A stretch of DNA of 46,234 nucleotides from a bacterium (GTDB lineage: Bacteria; Patescibacteriota; Minisyncoccia; CAIUEV01), in contig JAJYBC010000002.1 of assembly GCA_021779255.1 (NCBI GenBank), positions 1 to 46,234 on the forward strand, read 5' to 3'. Every line of letters begins with the position of its first letter. Position 1 is the first letter of the stretch. The position numbers were made by a program, and so were the translations under genes. The notes under the pieces are model-generated. The model searched no databases, was not told where the DNA came from, and saw nothing but the letters and a program-made list of their open reading frames with translations. This document shows positions 2,971-39,625 of this stretch, piece by piece.

Positions 2971-2981
2971 TTTGCAGGAAA

Positions 2982-3006
2982 GGGCAGGTCGCGACCTGCC
3001 CGTACG
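2982..3006. repeat. REP-like GC-rich palindrome, family 1 (GGGCAGGTCGCGACCTGCCC + GTACG)
   Basis: A perfect 20-bp palindrome centred on TCGCGA in AT-rich intergenic DNA. Related copies lie at 4121..4174 and 15158..15195. Confidence 0.8.
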
Positions 3007-4120: not shown

Positions 4121-4174
4121 GGGGACAGGTCGCGACCTGTCCGTACGACCTGTCCGTACGATCTGTCCGTACGA
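4121..4174. repeat. REP-like palindrome, family 1, with the right arm repeated three times
   Basis: GGGGACAGGTCGCGACCTGTCC is followed by three tandem 13-nt units (CCTGTCCGTACGA, CCTGTCCGTACGA, TCTGTCCGTACGA). Confidence 0.85.
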
Positions 4175-4701: not shown

Positions 4702-5097
4702 CTAACGTCGCAACTCAATGTTTAATAATTCAGAGGCTCGAGACAAAACTTCAGCGGGAGTAACTTTGACTTTAATAAAACATTCGTCAGCGCCGGTTTT
4801 TTTCATTTCTTCAATTTCCGAATCAAGGGCAGTATTAGATAAAACAATAATTTTGGGGTAGCCCTTAGCTTTTTTTTCTTGTTCTATTTGGTGTAACATT
4901 TCCAGACCGTCCATAGCGGGCATGGACATATCCATTATAACCAAATCAAAGTGACCGCTCTGAATTTTTTTTAACCCCCAAGCTCCGTTTTCGGCTTTTT
5001 CTACTGAAAAACCGGCTTGGATAAATTTGTGTTGATAAATTTCAATTAAATCTTGATTGTCGTCGATGATTAGGACTTTTTTTGTTTTTTGATTCAT
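4702..5097 (-). CDS. receiver-only response regulator (CheY-like)
   Basis: VLIIDDNQDL...DLVIMDMSMPAMDG...IIVLSN...KVKV are receiver motifs. The protein is 131 aa with no output domain. Confidence 0.85.
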   Translation of the reverse strand: MNQKTKKVLIIDDNQDLIEIYQHKFIQAGFSVEKAENGAWGLKKIQSGHFDLVIMDMSMPAMDGLEMLHQIEQEKKAKGYPKIIVLSNTALDSEIEEMKKTGADECFIKVKVTPAEVLSRASELLNIELRR

Positions 5098-7051: not shown

Positions 7052-7139
7052 GCTTTTTTTGTCTGTAAAAATTTTTTTTGAGTGGAGAAGTCACCCTGCC
7101 GGGGGCACACTCAAAAAAAATTTTTACAGACAAAAAAGC
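7052..7139. repeat. long hairpin with a conserved GC-rich apical core (family 2, copy A)
   Basis: A 32-bp AT-rich stem with one bulge pairs 7052-7084 with 7108-7139. The loop is GAGAAGTCACCCTGCCGGGGGCA. The core GAAGTCACCCTGCCGGGGGCACACTC is identical over 26 nt to the reverse complement of 12064..12089. Confidence 0.85.
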
Positions 7140-10276: not shown

Positions 10277-11683
10277 ATGTTTTTTAAGCGTAAAAAACAA
10301 TTTTCTGTACAAAAGGGTATGATTATTCCCTTTGTGATTGTTTTTGGTTCGATTCTAACTCTTATTTTAGTAAGTCTTTTGGGCTATGTTTCTTATCGTT
10401 ATCAACAATCGGTGAGACAAACTTATAAAGCGAACGCTTTACAAATGGCTGAAGCCGGCTTGAATTATTATTATTGGTATGTGTTGCATACTCTGGAAGG
10501 TAAATCCTCGGCTCAATTGGAAGCTTATTGGGCCACTGCTCCTCTGGGAGTTCCTTCTTACGAAAATCAAGTTAAGGATCAGTCGGGTAAGGTAATCGGC
10601 GTCTATCGTCTTGAAGTCACACCACCGGCTAAAGGTTCAACGATTATTATGGCGAAAATTATCGGTTGGGATATTAAAAATGCCAAATTGACACGAACCA
10701 TTGAAGCTCGTCTGCGAAAACCGTCTTGGAGCGAGTATAGTGTTATTGCCAATGACGTGATGCGCTTTGGTGAAGGAACGGAAACTTGGGGTCCGATTTA
10801 TTCTAACAATGGCATTCACTATGACGGGGTGGCTCATAATTTGGTTTCCAGTTACGTAACTAATACGTATTGGGATCCCGACTATAATGCCTACAAACCA
10901 GGTGTTTGGACTTCTTTACCTAATGAAGCGCAAGTTTTTTTGGCGGGTAAGGCTTATCCGGTGAGTTATAAAGATTTTAATCAAGTCTCGGTTGATTTTG
11001 GGGTGATGAAAACTTATTCGGCGCCGACCAAAGGGGGATTATATTTCCCAGCCGTTAACAAAAAAGATTGTGGCTATCACGTTCAACTGCGCACGGACGG
11101 AAAAATTCGAGTAGCCACAGTCAATACTTGCGATACGAGCAGTTATAAAATTGTTAAAGAATCTTCCTTTACTACTTACACAATGCCGACTAATGGTTTG
11201 ATTTTTTTTCAAGCCAATACTTGGGTCGAAGGAAGTATTAGTGACAAACATTTAACTATTGCAGCCGCTGATCCGGACAACGGAGCGGTGACCAATATTT
11301 ATCTTTTTAATGATGTTACTTATACCAACACAGATGGCCGAGATGTTTTGGGTTTAATTGCCCAAAATAACGTGAGCGTGGGTCTTTATAGCGATGATGA
11401 TTTGAGAATTGATGCGGCATTGGTAGCTCAAATTGGTCGAGTTGGGCGAGATTATTACACTTATTCCGATTCCAATAGCTATTATATCAGAAATACGATA
11501 ACAGTTAACGGCGCTATTGCTACCAATAGTCGTTACGGTTTTGCTTGGATTTGTGGAGGAACTCACTGCTCCGGTTATCGCAATCGGAACATTATTTATG
11601 ATAATAACTTGCTTTATACACCGCCACCGTTTTTCCCGACGGGCACCCACTATTCGATTGATCAATGGGAAGAGGTAAATTAA
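10277..11683 (+). CDS. PilX-N-like putative pilus-associated protein
   Basis: The N-terminus QKGMIIPFVIVFGSILTLILVSLLGYV...ANALQMAEAGLNYY resembles the PilX N-terminal domain: a hydrophobic helix followed by an AEAG motif. The remainder is a large beta-rich extracellular region. Confidence 0.6.
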   Translation: MFFKRKKQFSVQKGMIIPFVIVFGSILTLILVSLLGYVSYRYQQSVRQTYKANALQMAEAGLNYYYWYVLHTLEGKSSAQLEAYWATAPLGVPSYENQVKDQSGKVIGVYRLEVTPPAKGSTIIMAKIIGWDIKNAKLTRTIEARLRKPSWSEYSVIANDVMRFGEGTETWGPIYSNNGIHYDGVAHNLVSSYVTNTYWDPDYNAYKPGVWTSLPNEAQVFLAGKAYPVSYKDFNQVSVDFGVMKTYSAPTKGGLYFPAVNKKDCGYHVQLRTDGKIRVATVNTCDTSSYKIVKESSFTTYTMPTNGLIFFQANTWVEGSISDKHLTIAAADPDNGAVTNIYLFNDVTYTNTDGRDVLGLIAQNNVSVGLYSDDDLRIDAALVAQIGRVGRDYYTYSDSNSYYIRNTITVNGAIATNSRYGFAWICGGTHCSGYRNRNIIYDNNLLYTPPPFFPTGTHYSIDQWEEVN

Positions 11684-11973
11684 AATTTTACAGGGGCGGG
11701 GTTATTACGCCCATCCGTAGGAGCGTATCGCGATACGCTCCTACCGGAATCCGCGATATTTTCTTGGTTAGAGGTGGTTCTATTCTCCGGCAGGGGATTT
11801 TTGATTTGTTCGATACTTTGAACCGGCGCATCTGGATTAATAATTTCGGGCTTGACGGGTAAAACTGTTTGGCCGAATTCGAGATCGCGACGGGCTTGAA
11901 GAAGACTTCTCTTGTCTTCTTCTTGATTATCGCCAGAAGTTAAATTTTCCGGTTGCTTTTCTAATGTTTCCAT
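11680..11973 (-). CDS. possible small acidic hypothetical protein (doubtful)
   Basis: A 97-aa ORF with no recognisable motif. Its 3-prime end reads through the 28-bp palindrome, and the opposite strand also has an ORF across the same palindrome, so it may be non-coding. Confidence 0.3.
   Translation of the reverse strand: METLEKQPENLTSGDNQEEDKRSLLQARRDLEFGQTVLPVKPEIINPDAPVQSIEQIKNPLPENRTTSNQENIADSGRSVSRYAPTDGRNNPAPVKF
11717..11744. repeat. perfect 28-bp palindrome GTAGGAGCGTATCGCGATACGCTCCTAC
   Basis: Verified by reverse-complementing the half-site. The centre is TCGCGA, as in family 1. It lies 34 nt after the stop of 10277..11683 and may act as a terminator or a REP-like element. Confidence 0.8.
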
Positions 11974-12035: not shown

Positions 12036-12119
12036 GCGAATTTTTGGTAGTTTCCAATTGAGAGTGTGCCCCCGGCAGGGTGACTTCGCACTCGAAATTG
12101 AAAACTACCAAAAATTCGC
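12036..12119. repeat. long hairpin with a conserved GC-rich apical core (family 2, copy B, inverted core)
   Basis: A 31-position stem with 3 mismatches pairs 12036-12066 with 12089-12119. The loop is TGCCCCCGGCAGGGTGACTTCG. The stem sequence is unrelated to copy A while the core is conserved. Confidence 0.85.
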
Positions 12120-14324: not shown

Positions 14325-14408
14325 GAATTAAGAGATAAGAGATAGGAATTAAGAACAAATAGCCGGATTTTCTTCATTCTTATCTCCTAATTCTTATCTC
14401 TTTATTCC
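14325..14408. terminator. imperfect long hairpin between convergent genes
   Basis: GAATTAAGAGATAAGAGATAGGAATTAAGAA pairs imperfectly with TTCTTCATTCTTATCTCCTAATTCTTATCTC. It sits between the RodZ-like gene (+) and miaA (-) and overlaps the last codons of miaA. Confidence 0.3.
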
Positions 14409-15383
14409 TGACTTATTAGAGGAATTAGAAATTAGAAATTTTTTTGTTAACCTATTCGCTTCTTGACCATCTTTGACCCAGTGGATTCTTTTGTCTTTTT
14501 TAAACCAATTGATTTGCCGACGGGCAAATTGATAAATTTGTTTAGCCAAATTAATCTCAAGTTCTTGCCTGTTGATTTTATTTTGGAGAAAATAAGATAT
14601 ATACCTAGGTTCTAAACCCATTCTTTCCAGCCGAGCATAGTCGGCTTTTTTTTGAGAAATTATATTTTTTACTTCTTCAATCATACCTTGATTCAATCTC
14701 TCTTTTAATCTTTGAACAATTCGTTTTTTTAGAATTTCGTTAGAATAAATTTTTCCTAAAAAGAGAAAATTATATTTAGGTTCCGACTTTGGTTTGAAAC
14801 TGGCAAAACTTTGACCAGAGACAAGGCAAATCTCCAGAGCTCTTTGCAATCTTCTGGGGTTATTTTGATCGATACCAGTATAGGCCTCGGGATCTATTTT
14901 TAATAAATTTTGCTGGAGCTCTTCTAAACTCATTTTTTCCAGTTTTTGTCGAAGAGTCAGATCTTTTTTAAATTGAGGGAACTGCCAACCTTCTGTAATC
15001 GAATAAACGTAAAAAGGACTTCCGCCGACTACAATAGGTAATTTTTTATGATGTAAGATTTGATTAATAATTTTAAAAGCTTTTTGCTGAAATTCGGCCG
15101 AGCTAAATTCTTCGTTAGGCTCCAGAATATCAATAAGATAAGAGGGAATTGTTTGTTGGGACAGGTCGCGACCTGTCCGTACGCGGCCTGTCTCTGTTAT
15201 AATATATTCATTTTTGTCTTTTCCGGTGCAAAGATCGAGATAGCGATAAATTTGCCTAGAATCGGCCGAAATAATTTCACCGTCAAATTTGACGGCTAAT
15301 TCCACTCCCAGTCTAGTTTTTCCGCAGGCCGTCGGACCTACAACCGCCACCGCTTTGGGCAAATTAAATTTATCTTTTTGCAT
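14394..15383 (-). CDS. miaA: tRNA dimethylallyltransferase
   Basis: P-loop VVGPTACGKT, then IISADSRQIYRYLDLCTGK...YLIDI...IVVGGSPFY. It carries an in-frame insertion encoded by a REP-like palindrome (see findings). Confidence 0.9.
   Translation of the reverse strand: MQKDKFNLPKAVAVVGPTACGKTRLGVELAVKFDGEIISADSRQIYRYLDLCTGKDKNEYIITETGRVRTGRDLSQQTIPSYLIDILEPNEEFSSAEFQQKAFKIINQILHHKKLPIVVGGSPFYVYSITEGWQFPQFKKDLTLRQKLEKMSLEELQQNLLKIDPEAYTGIDQNNPRRLQRALEICLVSGQSFASFKPKSEPKYNFLFLGKIYSNEILKKRIVQRLKERLNQGMIEEVKNIISQKKADYARLERMGLEPRYISYFLQNKINRQELEINLAKQIYQFARRQINWFKKDKRIHWVKDGQEANRLTKKFLISNSSNKSGIKR
15158..15195. repeat. REP-like palindrome, family 1, inside the miaA coding sequence
   Basis: GGGACAGGTCGCGACCTGTCC GTACG CGGCCTGTCTC is the same palindrome as at 4121 plus a degenerate second right arm. 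On the minus strand it encodes ...TGRVRTGRDLSQ... Confidence 0.85.
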
Positions 15384-36270: not shown

Positions 36271-36287
36271 AATTTGCATTTGCGTCA

Positions 36288-36403
36288 TTGTGCGGATGAA
36301 TTTTGTATTGTTGTGCGGATGAATTTTGTATTGTTGTGCGGATGAATTTTGTATTGTTGTGCGGATGAATTTTGTATTGTTGTGCGGATGAATTTTGTAT
36401 TTG
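36288..36403. repeat. tandem array, 5 copies of the 23-bp unit TTGTGCGGATGAATTTTGTATTG
   Basis: Counted directly. Units start at 36288, 36311, 36334, 36357 and 36380; the last carries one extra T. Confidence 0.95.
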
Positions 36404-36412
36404 TATTATTGT

Positions 36413-36437
36413 AGAGACGGGTCTCAGACCCGTCTCT
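36413..36437. repeat. 25-bp palindrome AGAGACGGGTCTCAGACCCGTCTCT (left copy)
   Basis: An 11-bp GC-rich stem with a 3-nt centre, identical to the copy at 37027..37051. Confidence 0.95.
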
Positions 36438-36518: not shown

Positions 36519-37058
36519 ATGACCCAATTATTATTTCAAAATAAATATCGAATACCGTCCATTCGATTGAAAAAACACGATTATTCATTGTCGCGGTATT
36601 ATTTTATTACAATTTGTACTCACAATAAAAAATATATTTTGGGAAAAATTATGAATAATAAAATGAAATTATCATGGGTGGGAAAAATTATTAATACCGT
36701 TTGGAAAAATTTACCCAAATATTACTCCAATTGTGTTTTAGATGAGTTTGTAATTATGCCCAACCATATTCATGGTATTATTTATATTAAAAATACCTCT
36801 GGAAATAAAAAACATACATTGTCGGACATTGTCCGATCGTTTAAATCGTTTTCAACGCGGGAAATTAATCGCGTGCAAAAAACACCAAAAAATTTATTAT
36901 GGCAAACACGTTTTTATGAAAATATAGTCCGTGATGGAAATGCATTGGAATCAATCCGTCAATATATTCGGAACAATCCGTTAAAATGGTATCGCGATCG
37001 AAATAATTTTTATTTTGTTGAGAAAAAGAGACGGGTCTCAGACCCGTCTCTACAATAA
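36519..37058 (+). CDS. IS200/IS605-superfamily Y1 (HUH) transposase, REP-associated tyrosine transposase (RAYT)-like
   Basis: YFITICTHNKK..., HUH motif MPNHIHGII, SFKSFSTREIN, and the C-terminal LWQTRFYENIVRD...YIRNNPLKW carrying the candidate catalytic Tyr region. The last codons read through the right palindrome. The ATG at 36519 is preferred over the TTG at 36501. Confidence 0.8.
   Translation: MTQLLFQNKYRIPSIRLKKHDYSLSRYYFITICTHNKKYILGKIMNNKMKLSWVGKIINTVWKNLPKYYSNCVLDEFVIMPNHIHGIIYIKNTSGNKKHTLSDIVRSFKSFSTREINRVQKTPKNLLWQTRFYENIVRDGNALESIRQYIRNNPLKWYRDRNNFYFVEKKRRVSDPSLQ
37027..37051. repeat. 25-bp palindrome AGAGACGGGTCTCAGACCCGTCTCT (right copy)
   Basis: Identical to 36413..36437. It overlaps the 3-prime end of the transposase CDS. 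Confidence 0.95.
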
Positions 37059-37065
37059 TACAAAT

Positions 37066-37203
37066 ACAAAATTCATCCATACAACAATACAAAATTCATC
37101 CATACAATAATACAAAATTCATCCATACAATAATACAAAATTCATCCATACAATAATACAAAATTCATCCATACAATAATACAAAATTCATCCATACAAT
37201 AAT
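37066..37203. repeat. tandem array, 6 copies of the 23-bp unit ACAAAATTCATCCATACAATAAT (inverted relative to the left array)
   Basis: Units start at 37066, 37089, 37112, 37135, 37158 and 37181. They match the reverse complement of the left unit except for 2-3 fixed differences (CCATAC versus CCGCAC). Confidence 0.95.
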
Positions 37204-37251
37204 ACAAAAATACCTCCGTGTTCATGGGTTTTTAGACTGAGATGTCGAATC

Positions 37252-39459: not shown

Positions 39460-39492
39460 CCACTTCCCCCCCAGCAGGGTGACTTCTCCACT
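39460..39492. repeat. family-2 core, solo copy C (no long stem)
   Basis: CCACTTCCCCCCCAGCAGGGTGACTTCTCCACT. Its reverse complement shares GTGGAGAAGTCACCCTGC (18 nt) exactly with copy A. The right flank AAAATTGAAAA resembles the flank of copy B. Confidence 0.75.
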
Positions 39493-39625
39493 AAAAATTG
39501 AAAATTCTTTTTACTAACACTCTATAGAAAAAATATAATTTATAATAATTGTAAGAAATTAAATTTCTCTTTTATAATAAACGGAAATAACTTTTGACAT
39601 CATTATTTAATAATTTAACTGAAAA

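Follow-up and report, generated by a model that had tools for sequence, protein, structure and literature searches.

A palindromic repeat lies in frame within miaA

The window, that is, the whole stretch of 46,234 nucleotides analysed here, comes from a mine-drainage metagenome. It is AT-rich (about 35-40% GC) and its genes resemble those of Patescibacteria (CPR), the named relatives of its MiaA being Moranbacteria, Falkowbacteria and similar groups. Its miaA ORF matched the Pfam family IPPT (PF01715) at E 8.8e-55, and a 26-mer, GGGACAGGTCGCGACCTGTCCGTACG, was found exactly at 15158-15183 within this gene, confirming the REP-like palindrome that the first-pass annotation had placed inside miaA on the minus strand. 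The core of this 26-mer is a perfect 20-nt palindrome, which is followed on the plus strand by a GTACG tag and a degenerate extra arm (Table 1). The coding strand of the region reads TAT ATT ATA ACA [GAG ACA GGC CGC GTA CGG ACA GGT CGC GAC CTG TCC] CAA CAA ACA ATT CCC, which is translated as Y-I-I-T-[E-T-G-R-V-R-T-G-R-D-L-S]-Q-Q-T-I-P with E64-S75 as the insert, and the MiaA ORF contains the translated stretch ...GKDKNEYIITETGRVRTGRDLSQQTIPSYLIDI.... Relative to the nearest orthologs, MiaA has a net gain of 12 aa (36 nt), located around 15159-15194. The boundaries carry an uncertainty of 3-4 nt, as the similarity to other copies of this metagenome extends over 15158-15198. The GC content of the insert is 69% vs 35% in miaA, and zero stop codons were found in it across all six frames.

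Table 1. Positions and properties of the genes, repeats and palindromes discussed in the text
Feature	Locus	Position	Strand	Details
miaA (tRNA dimethylallyltransferase)	window	14394..15383	(-)	329 aa, uninterrupted ORF hosting the insertion
REP-derived in-frame insertion	window	15159..15194	(-)	36 nt, codons 64-75, peptide ETGRVRTGRDLS
Insertion, perfect palindrome	window	15159-15178	read on (+)	core GGACAGGTCGCGACCTGTCC
Insertion, GTACG tag	window	15179-15183	read on (+)	
Insertion, degenerate extra arm	window	15184-15194	read on (+)	CGGCCTGTCTC
Intergenic REP copy	window	4122..4173	(+)	26-mer (4122-4147) identical to the miaA copy, then on the right side two more tandem 13-nt right-arm units, ACCTGTCCGTACG and ATCTGTCCGTACG; between convergent genes
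Intergenic REP variant	window	2981..3006	(+)	GGGCAGGTCGCGACCTGCCC; downstream of a terminator-like hairpin; DNA fold z -3.7
RAYT-like (IS200/Y1-type) transposase gene	window	36519..37058	(+)	Pfam Y1_Tnp, E 2.8e-10
Left palindrome of the RAYT-like gene	window	36411..36437	(+)	GTAG-tagged, GTAGAGACGGGTCTCAGACCCGTCTCT, z -7.4
Right palindrome of the RAYT-like gene	window	37027..37053	(-)	same sequence inverted; overlaps last codons of the RAYT ORF
23-nt tandem arrays	window	36279-36401 and, inverted, 37063-37209		TTGTGCGGATGAATTTTGTATTG, 5-6 copies, outside the palindromes
MiaA loop palindrome	P0016			GTAGGAACAGGACGACGCCCTGTTCCTAC
MiaA loop palindrome	P0013			GTAGGAACAGAGCAATGCTCTGTTCCTAC
MiaA loop palindrome	L175			TAGGAACAGGGCACTGCCCTGTTCCTA
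MiaA loop element	L150			GGAAGTCSGACTTCC x2
MiaA loop elements	P0006, P0008			GC-rich multi-hairpin segments
DNA polymerase I (PolA)	Magasanikbacteria L002			in-frame REP
UvrC	L044			two in-frame REP copies
UvrB	L037			in-frame REP
PheT	L084, L085			in-frame REP
Glycosyltransferase	L098			in-frame REP
BcrAD/BadFG-type ATPase	Falkowbacteria L065			in-frame REP
AlaRS	Flavobacterium L088			in-frame REP
Type I restriction R subunit (HsdR)	L114	14-3025	(-)	two in-frame REP copies
DNA methylase	L049			in-frame REP

The miaA copy folds as DNA with a z-score of -3.2. An mRNA hairpin of moderate stability is predicted at the insert (-19.3 kcal/mol, z -1.8); it lacks a U-tract, neither a terminator nor a promoter was flagged there, and it matched nothing in Rfam at E up to 1. 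The proposal that this hairpin modulates translation found no support, the hairpin being moderate and not terminator-like. In three metatranscriptome runs of the same study no contig fell on miaA, which makes them uninformative on expression. The Rfam search across the whole window returned one tRNA only (1657-1729, 76.5 bits); this tRNA gene underlies the start of a listed ORF, 1653-2366, which probably has a wrong start or is spurious.

Three REP copies were found in the 46 kb. Besides the copy in miaA, one lies between convergent genes and one between unidirectional genes; shuffled window sequence gave 0 matches to the 26-mer. The intergenic copy that had been described as identical to the one in miaA indeed matches it at 26/26 positions, with its start at 4122 and not at 4121 as given earlier, and it has the same arrangement as the miaA insertion, with one left arm and several right arms. 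The variant copy at 2981-3006 (AGGGCAGGTCGCGACCTGCCCGTACG) carries 3 mismatches to the 26-mer, two of which form a compensatory A/T to G/C stem pair. No consistent direct repeat or target-site duplication was found around the three copies. On other contigs of this metagenome the segment 15158-15192 recurs in unrelated surroundings, which indicates that the whole unit is repeated, including its degenerate second arm CGGCCTGTC. The element is thus a short GC-rich palindrome (20-40 nt) able to form a stem-loop, with dispersed copies, two of the three in the window being intergenic and further ones lying on other metagenome contigs, as expected of a REP; a MITE, for which terminal inverted repeats, a target-site duplication and a length of 70-300 bp are characteristic, does not fit the 36-nt miaA insert and the lack of a consistent flanking direct repeat. 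The copies at 2981, 4122 and 15158 are co-oriented, with the GTACG tag toward higher coordinates, and the cumulative GC skew of the contig rises throughout; the shared orientation would fit the strand bias of single-strand transposition, for which three copies are too few. The TETGR/VRTGR duplication in miaA can be compared with the 13-nt tandem arms at 4148-4173 and with the RDLSLQ expansion of an HsdR gene described below.

The repeat belongs to a RAYT-associated family shared across phyla

An exact scan with the 25-mer GGRCAGGTCGCGACCTGYCCGTACG over 596 Gb, with one genome per species, returned at least 116 loci, where by our arithmetic ~0.02 matches would be expected by chance. The loci listed are mostly from Bacteroidota, including cultured Flavobacterium, Aequorivita, Pontibacter and Xanthomarina, with about a dozen from Patescibacteria (Magasanikbacteria, Falkowbacteria, Shapirobacteria, Komeilibacteria and Peribacteria) and single matches in Ignavibacteria, Cloacimonadota and Scalindua. 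In 28 of the 116 loci listed, including two of Patescibacteria (L062 and L084), homologs of a single RAYT gene were recognised, and the REP lies inside the RAYT ORF in 17 of those 28 and at most 231 nt away in 10 more. In Flavobacterium facile, an eight-unit tandem array of 63-64-nt repeats adjoins a 189-aa gene with an HUH motif (MPNHFH), within which the palindrome also occurs in frame; this gene matched the NCBIfam model of REP-associated tyrosine transposases with an E of 2e-16, short of the curated cut-off. Over 142 copies, the side opposite GTACG has the consensus GTAG (G.57, T.64, A.56, G.61), the tag by which the main REP superfamily is defined (PMC3733652); at this position the miaA copy reads GTTG, and the other two window copies are also unmatched. 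The RAYT linkage together with the GTAG consensus supports the assignment of the element to the RAYT-associated REPs, and the earlier description of a mobile repeat is borne out by its multiple copies here and across many genomes and by the tie of the family to RAYT transposases. These data show a REP family and its RAYT crossing phylum boundaries with near-identical sequence; no paper linking RAYT or REPIN to Bacteroidetes or Patescibacteria was found in the library searched, which is a weak negative.

Within the RAYT-like genes the REP occurs in frame at two recurrent positions, before the HUH motif (L042 1535-2104) or just after it (L001, L012, L017, L049, L062, L081 and L084). The presumed substrate of the transposase is thus part of the gene that encodes it. 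In L042 and L079 the REP-carrying RAYT adjoins tandem arrays of a 63-64-nt REP-centred unit. A CRISPR array was considered for these periodic Flavobacterium copies and rejected, as the 'spacers' are themselves repeated, and they were assigned as tandem REP arrays.

The window also holds a RAYT-like gene of its own (Table 1), which matched NCBIfam REP_Tyr_transpos at E 3e-19 with 69.4 bits, below the cut-off of 80, and points to the presence of REP machinery in this genome. Together with its palindromes and tandem arrays it makes the segment 36279-37209 look like a complete REPtron. Its protein is 26% identical to the Flavobacterium RAYT bearing the miaA-type REP, and its palindrome has the general form of the miaA REP with a different sequence. 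Judging from these sequences, this protein is unlikely to be the transposase that serves the miaA REP, and no RAYT flanked by the miaA-type palindrome was found in the 46-kb window. Two more kinds of repeat were observed: a third palindrome type at 11717-11744, GTAGGAGCGTATCGCGATACGCTCCTAC, which is a 28-nt perfect palindrome tagged GTAG...CTAC and lies between convergent genes, overlapping the 3' end of a 97-aa ORF (11680-11973); and a GC-rich 26-30-nt core, GAAGTCACCCTGCCGGGGGCACACTC, in three intergenic copies (7055-7137, 12036-12119 and 39468-39497), flanked in two of them by long AT-rich inverted repeats that differ between copies; for this core a MITE-like element and a structured RNA are both conceivable.

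In-frame copies occur in other genes

Long ORFs in which the REP is far from either end were compared with Pfam, and in-frame copies were recognised in the genes listed in Table 1, so that the search for other coding locations proposed in the first-pass annotation gave a positive answer in PolA, UvrB, UvrC, AlaRS, PheT and HsdR genes. Its view that in-frame REPs in housekeeping genes are rarely documented needs correction, since PMC3733652 describes Rickettsia RPEs and GTAG/CGTC REPs within uvrA/B, polA and dnaE as well as in genes for tRNA synthetases. By our own count over the loci listed, the REP is intragenic in ~8 of ~13 Patescibacteria loci vs a handful of ~100 in Bacteroidota, and the commonest reading frame of the REP in the other host genes encodes V-x-T-G-R. 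With the tiny, gene-dense genomes of Patescibacteria and mostly intragenic copies in the sampled loci, REPs may regularly supply loop insertions there. In the HsdR gene of L114, about ten in-frame tandem RDLSLQ repeats follow the second REP copy and are derived from one REP arm, which shows that such an arm can be amplified into tandem repeats within coding sequence.

The GK-HLID linker of MiaA has been entered repeatedly

The stretch from the GK motif to HLID usually has 9-10 residues in 120 relatives (range 5 to ~80), and among another 69 MiaA genes, taken from metagenomes, the mode was 10 and the maximum 33. In at least seven lineages this loop carries significant palindromes, which represent several unrelated families and have arms of 9-16 bp, compared with an average of 4-5 in shuffles that rarely reach the observed values. 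The palindrome of L175 recurs, between AT-rich flanks, on further contigs of the same metagenomes and is hence a repeat; no extra copies of the GGAACAG palindrome or of the GC-rich hairpins were found in the short flanks of other miaA loci, multi-copy status being shown for L175 only. In a loop-free tree, the window MiaA falls beside lineages with plain 9-aa loops, and P0016, P0013 and P0008 fall among lineages with 5-aa loops; the L175 MiaA is 37-43% identical to those of the window and P0016. The tree placement and the divergence of L175 indicate that the loop insertions are separate events. Repeated colonisation of one MiaA loop thereby offers a natural test set for insertion-tolerant protein sites.

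Such recurrence could mean that the linker is actively targeted by REPs of the GTAG/GTAC superfamily through DNA sequence or structure, or that the hairpin is kept by selection for pausing, mRNA stability or use as a recombination site, an explanation that we consider improbable. Active targeting would account for the related palindromes (GTA-G/C-G-A/G-ACAG...CTGT-T/C-C) that match the window copy in codon position and frame in P0016, P0013 and L175, whose MiaA proteins are 37-60% identical to that of the window, as well as for the other palindromic elements in the same loop of P0006, P0008 and L150; the seven lineages with arms well above the shuffled length and the multi-copy palindrome of L175 in its own metagenome point the same way. 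However, the loop elements come from unrelated families, and that of P0064 (L127 2479-2510) is not a palindrome at all, consisting of a plain heptamer tandem repeat, (AAATCCG)x4, and AT-rich sequence. Furthermore, the L175 MiaA, with its GGAACAG palindrome in the loop, bears a second GC-rich palindromic insertion near the C-terminus (4829-4915, WFRR[WEKQACPLVPLSGIGRAG]KIKW). Because of the P0064 heptamer repeat and this second insertion elsewhere, the site is better described as tolerated than as targeted. The shared frame is a weak argument for targeting, as the palindrome core encodes the same peptides on both strands and V-x-T-G-R is also the commonest reading elsewhere, and the nearest relatives of each carrier are without any insertion. 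Selection on the hairpin is countered by its lack of terminator-like features and of any matching Rfam family.

We tentatively raise a related proposal, which we hold to be rather unlikely, that in Patescibacteria the GK-linker is a preferred landing site for RAYT palindromes, beyond being tolerated. It is based on members of a single GTAG/GTAC superfamily that share codon position and frame in MiaA proteins of only 37-60% identity, on the REP family being 25/25-nt identical across phyla, and on a RAYT clade with an internal REP. If true, the cross-phylum identity and the RAYT with its internal REP would suggest that a REP-RAYT system has spread horizontally and that the transposase is possibly regulated by its own REP.

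The insertion is real and the host protein appears intact

It was then considered whether miaA is a pseudogene or was inactivated by the insertion, or whether the insertion is an assembly artefact made by the repeat; taken together we regard these as very improbable. The features that could suggest them are the HLID motif, which reads SYLIDI in place of the usual YHLIDI, and the assemblies of run X2, which break at the repeat. The ORF of 329 aa is nevertheless uninterrupted, and its product scored 209 bits against NCBIfam TIGR00174 (cut-off 148.65), far above the curated threshold, which speaks against the pseudogene possibility noted in the first-pass annotation. All 40 invariant columns of the family alignment are retained, among them those of GPTACGKT (P-loop GPTxxGKT) and DSRQIY (DSRQ(I/V)Y). 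The AF2 model is confident (mean pLDDT 88.7) and matches the E. coli MiaA-tRNA structures (2zm5/3foz) with a TM of 0.79. Contigs from runs X1, X3 and X4, which are independent runs of the same study, span the insertion with 0 differences, and an identical MiaA protein is encoded in two independent assemblies, NCBI GCA_027351095.1 and one ENA assembly. No insert-free population variant was found in the four metagenome runs among assembler contigs, which drop rare variants.

In the model, pLDDT dips to 57-61 at residues 61-80 and falls below 50 at 71-74, which fits a flexible loop at residues 61-80; the low pLDDT and the tolerance of this region to indels suggest that the inserted peptide may be surface-exposed. 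The inserted loop starts only ~8 residues past the conserved TGK motif, and given this closeness it may affect tRNA binding. A structural role of the GK-HLID linker is not given in an i6A review. Overall the window MiaA is probably still functional, as judged from its intact motifs and predicted fold.

The alignment with orthologs places the insertion in the linker that leads from the GK motif to the HLIDI strand, with the frame preserved and the surrounding motifs intact, as had been proposed. In the nearest orthologs (62% identical) the site is empty and reads YFIGKRKIP, in comparison with YIIT[ETGRVRTGRDLS]QQTIP in the window, so that 18 residues separate the Tyr from Ile-Pro here and six in the nearest relatives. 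The nearest relatives P0003, P0004, P0005, P0007 and P0009 have 303 aa each, and the ftsA-miaA gene order is common to P0003 and the window. In alignments with the window protein, a gap of 13-15 residues opens at this place in the solved MiaA structures of Bacillus halodurans, Staphylococcus epidermidis and E. coli. The claim of about 12 added residues holds, as MiaA orthologs lack the segment. No protein between 62% and 100% identity to the window MiaA was found among 5.8 billion database proteins; with no relative above 62% identity, no empty allele of this exact gene was seen. That the segment is an ancestral MiaA loop which merely resembles the repeat, or is the source of the intergenic copies, is next to inconceivable even though several other lineages have long loops, since all nine nearest relatives have loops of 9-11 aa without the segment, its DNA matches the intergenic copy at every position of the 26-mer, copies occur in >100 unrelated genomes, and it forms a GC island in the gene. 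The palindromes at the same site in other MiaA lineages are different elements, absent from the nearest relatives of their carriers, and the ancestral loop that the first-pass annotation had foreseen as a counter-argument was thus not encountered. Collectively, the insertion is real, in frame and located in the most indel-tolerant part of MiaA.

A selfish repeat as a probable passenger in a permissive loop

The explanation that we consider likely is that a selfish REP is carried as a passenger in a permissive loop of MiaA. The REP would be a small non-autonomous element mobilised by a single-strand transposase of the RAYT type (IS200/IS605-like, HUH/Y1), of which one copy would have landed inside miaA. 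Three circumstances may have allowed the insert to survive: its length is a multiple of three, it is free of stops in every frame, and it would have struck the linker from the short helix that follows the GK motif to the beta-strand (S)YLIDI, the one linker in MiaA that tolerates a change of length. The 12-mer, rich in Gly, Arg, Thr, Asp and Ser, most likely extends this loop flexibly and MiaA most likely stays active, and the insertion would then be a neutral or slightly costly passenger and not an adaptation.

Comparison with known systems

The REPIN/RAYT systems of Pseudomonas and E. coli reportedly consist of a single-copy HUH/Y1 gene flanked by its cognate palindromes and of many dispersed copies, and their REPs are said to be essentially extragenic. 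The layout of the window segment 36279-37209 is that of a REPtron, as in those systems. Unlike them, the miaA-type REP sits inside the RAYT ORF at two recurrent sites, and in place of lineage-specific repeats, near-identical 25-mers are shared across phyla.

The Rickettsia RPE resembles the miaA insert in being a selfish palindrome that lies in frame in housekeeping genes, is absent from orthologs and has hosts thought to be functional, and for the miaA insert, too, the frame is preserved, the host is intact and the segment is absent from orthologs. RPE-1 reportedly measures ~100-150 bp, encodes 30-50 residues, and belongs to an obligate intracellular alphaproteobacterium with no associated RAYT. 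In contrast, the miaA insert has 36 nt, is unrelated in sequence to the RPE families and comes from another phylum, which places it outside these families. Rickettsia RPEs have likewise been documented as in-frame insertions (PMC3733652, citing Ogata et al. 2000 Science).

The closest parallel is with the intragenic GTAG/CGTC-tagged REPs (Di Nocera, De Gregorio, Rocco 2013, BMC Genomics 14:522; PMC3733652), surveyed in Proteobacteria, Cyanobacteria, Chloroflexi and PVC. Like the miaA-type REP, these are short, RAYT-linked palindromes that lie mostly between genes at gene 3' ends, with an in-frame minority in genes of known proteins, notably of DNA repair and replication and tRNA synthetases; PolA, UvrB, UvrC, AlaRS and PheT are host classes in common, and a single unit contributes ~8-12 residues in both. 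The miaA-type REP differs in living in Bacteroidota and Patescibacteria and in its invariant tag, GTACG, the GTAG on the other side being merely a 56-64% consensus, and miaA is absent from the hosts of intragenic REPs listed in PMC3733652. As a selfish DNA hairpin that adds a peptide to an enzyme of an essential pathway, apparently without breaking it, the present case is a clean example from nature and the first that we found for Patescibacteria or for miaA. Taken alone it adds little beyond the Rickettsia RPEs and the 2013 survey of GTAG/CGTC REPs, and its wider value lies in the cross-phylum REP-RAYT family, the REPs inside RAYT genes and the repeated colonisation of the MiaA loop.
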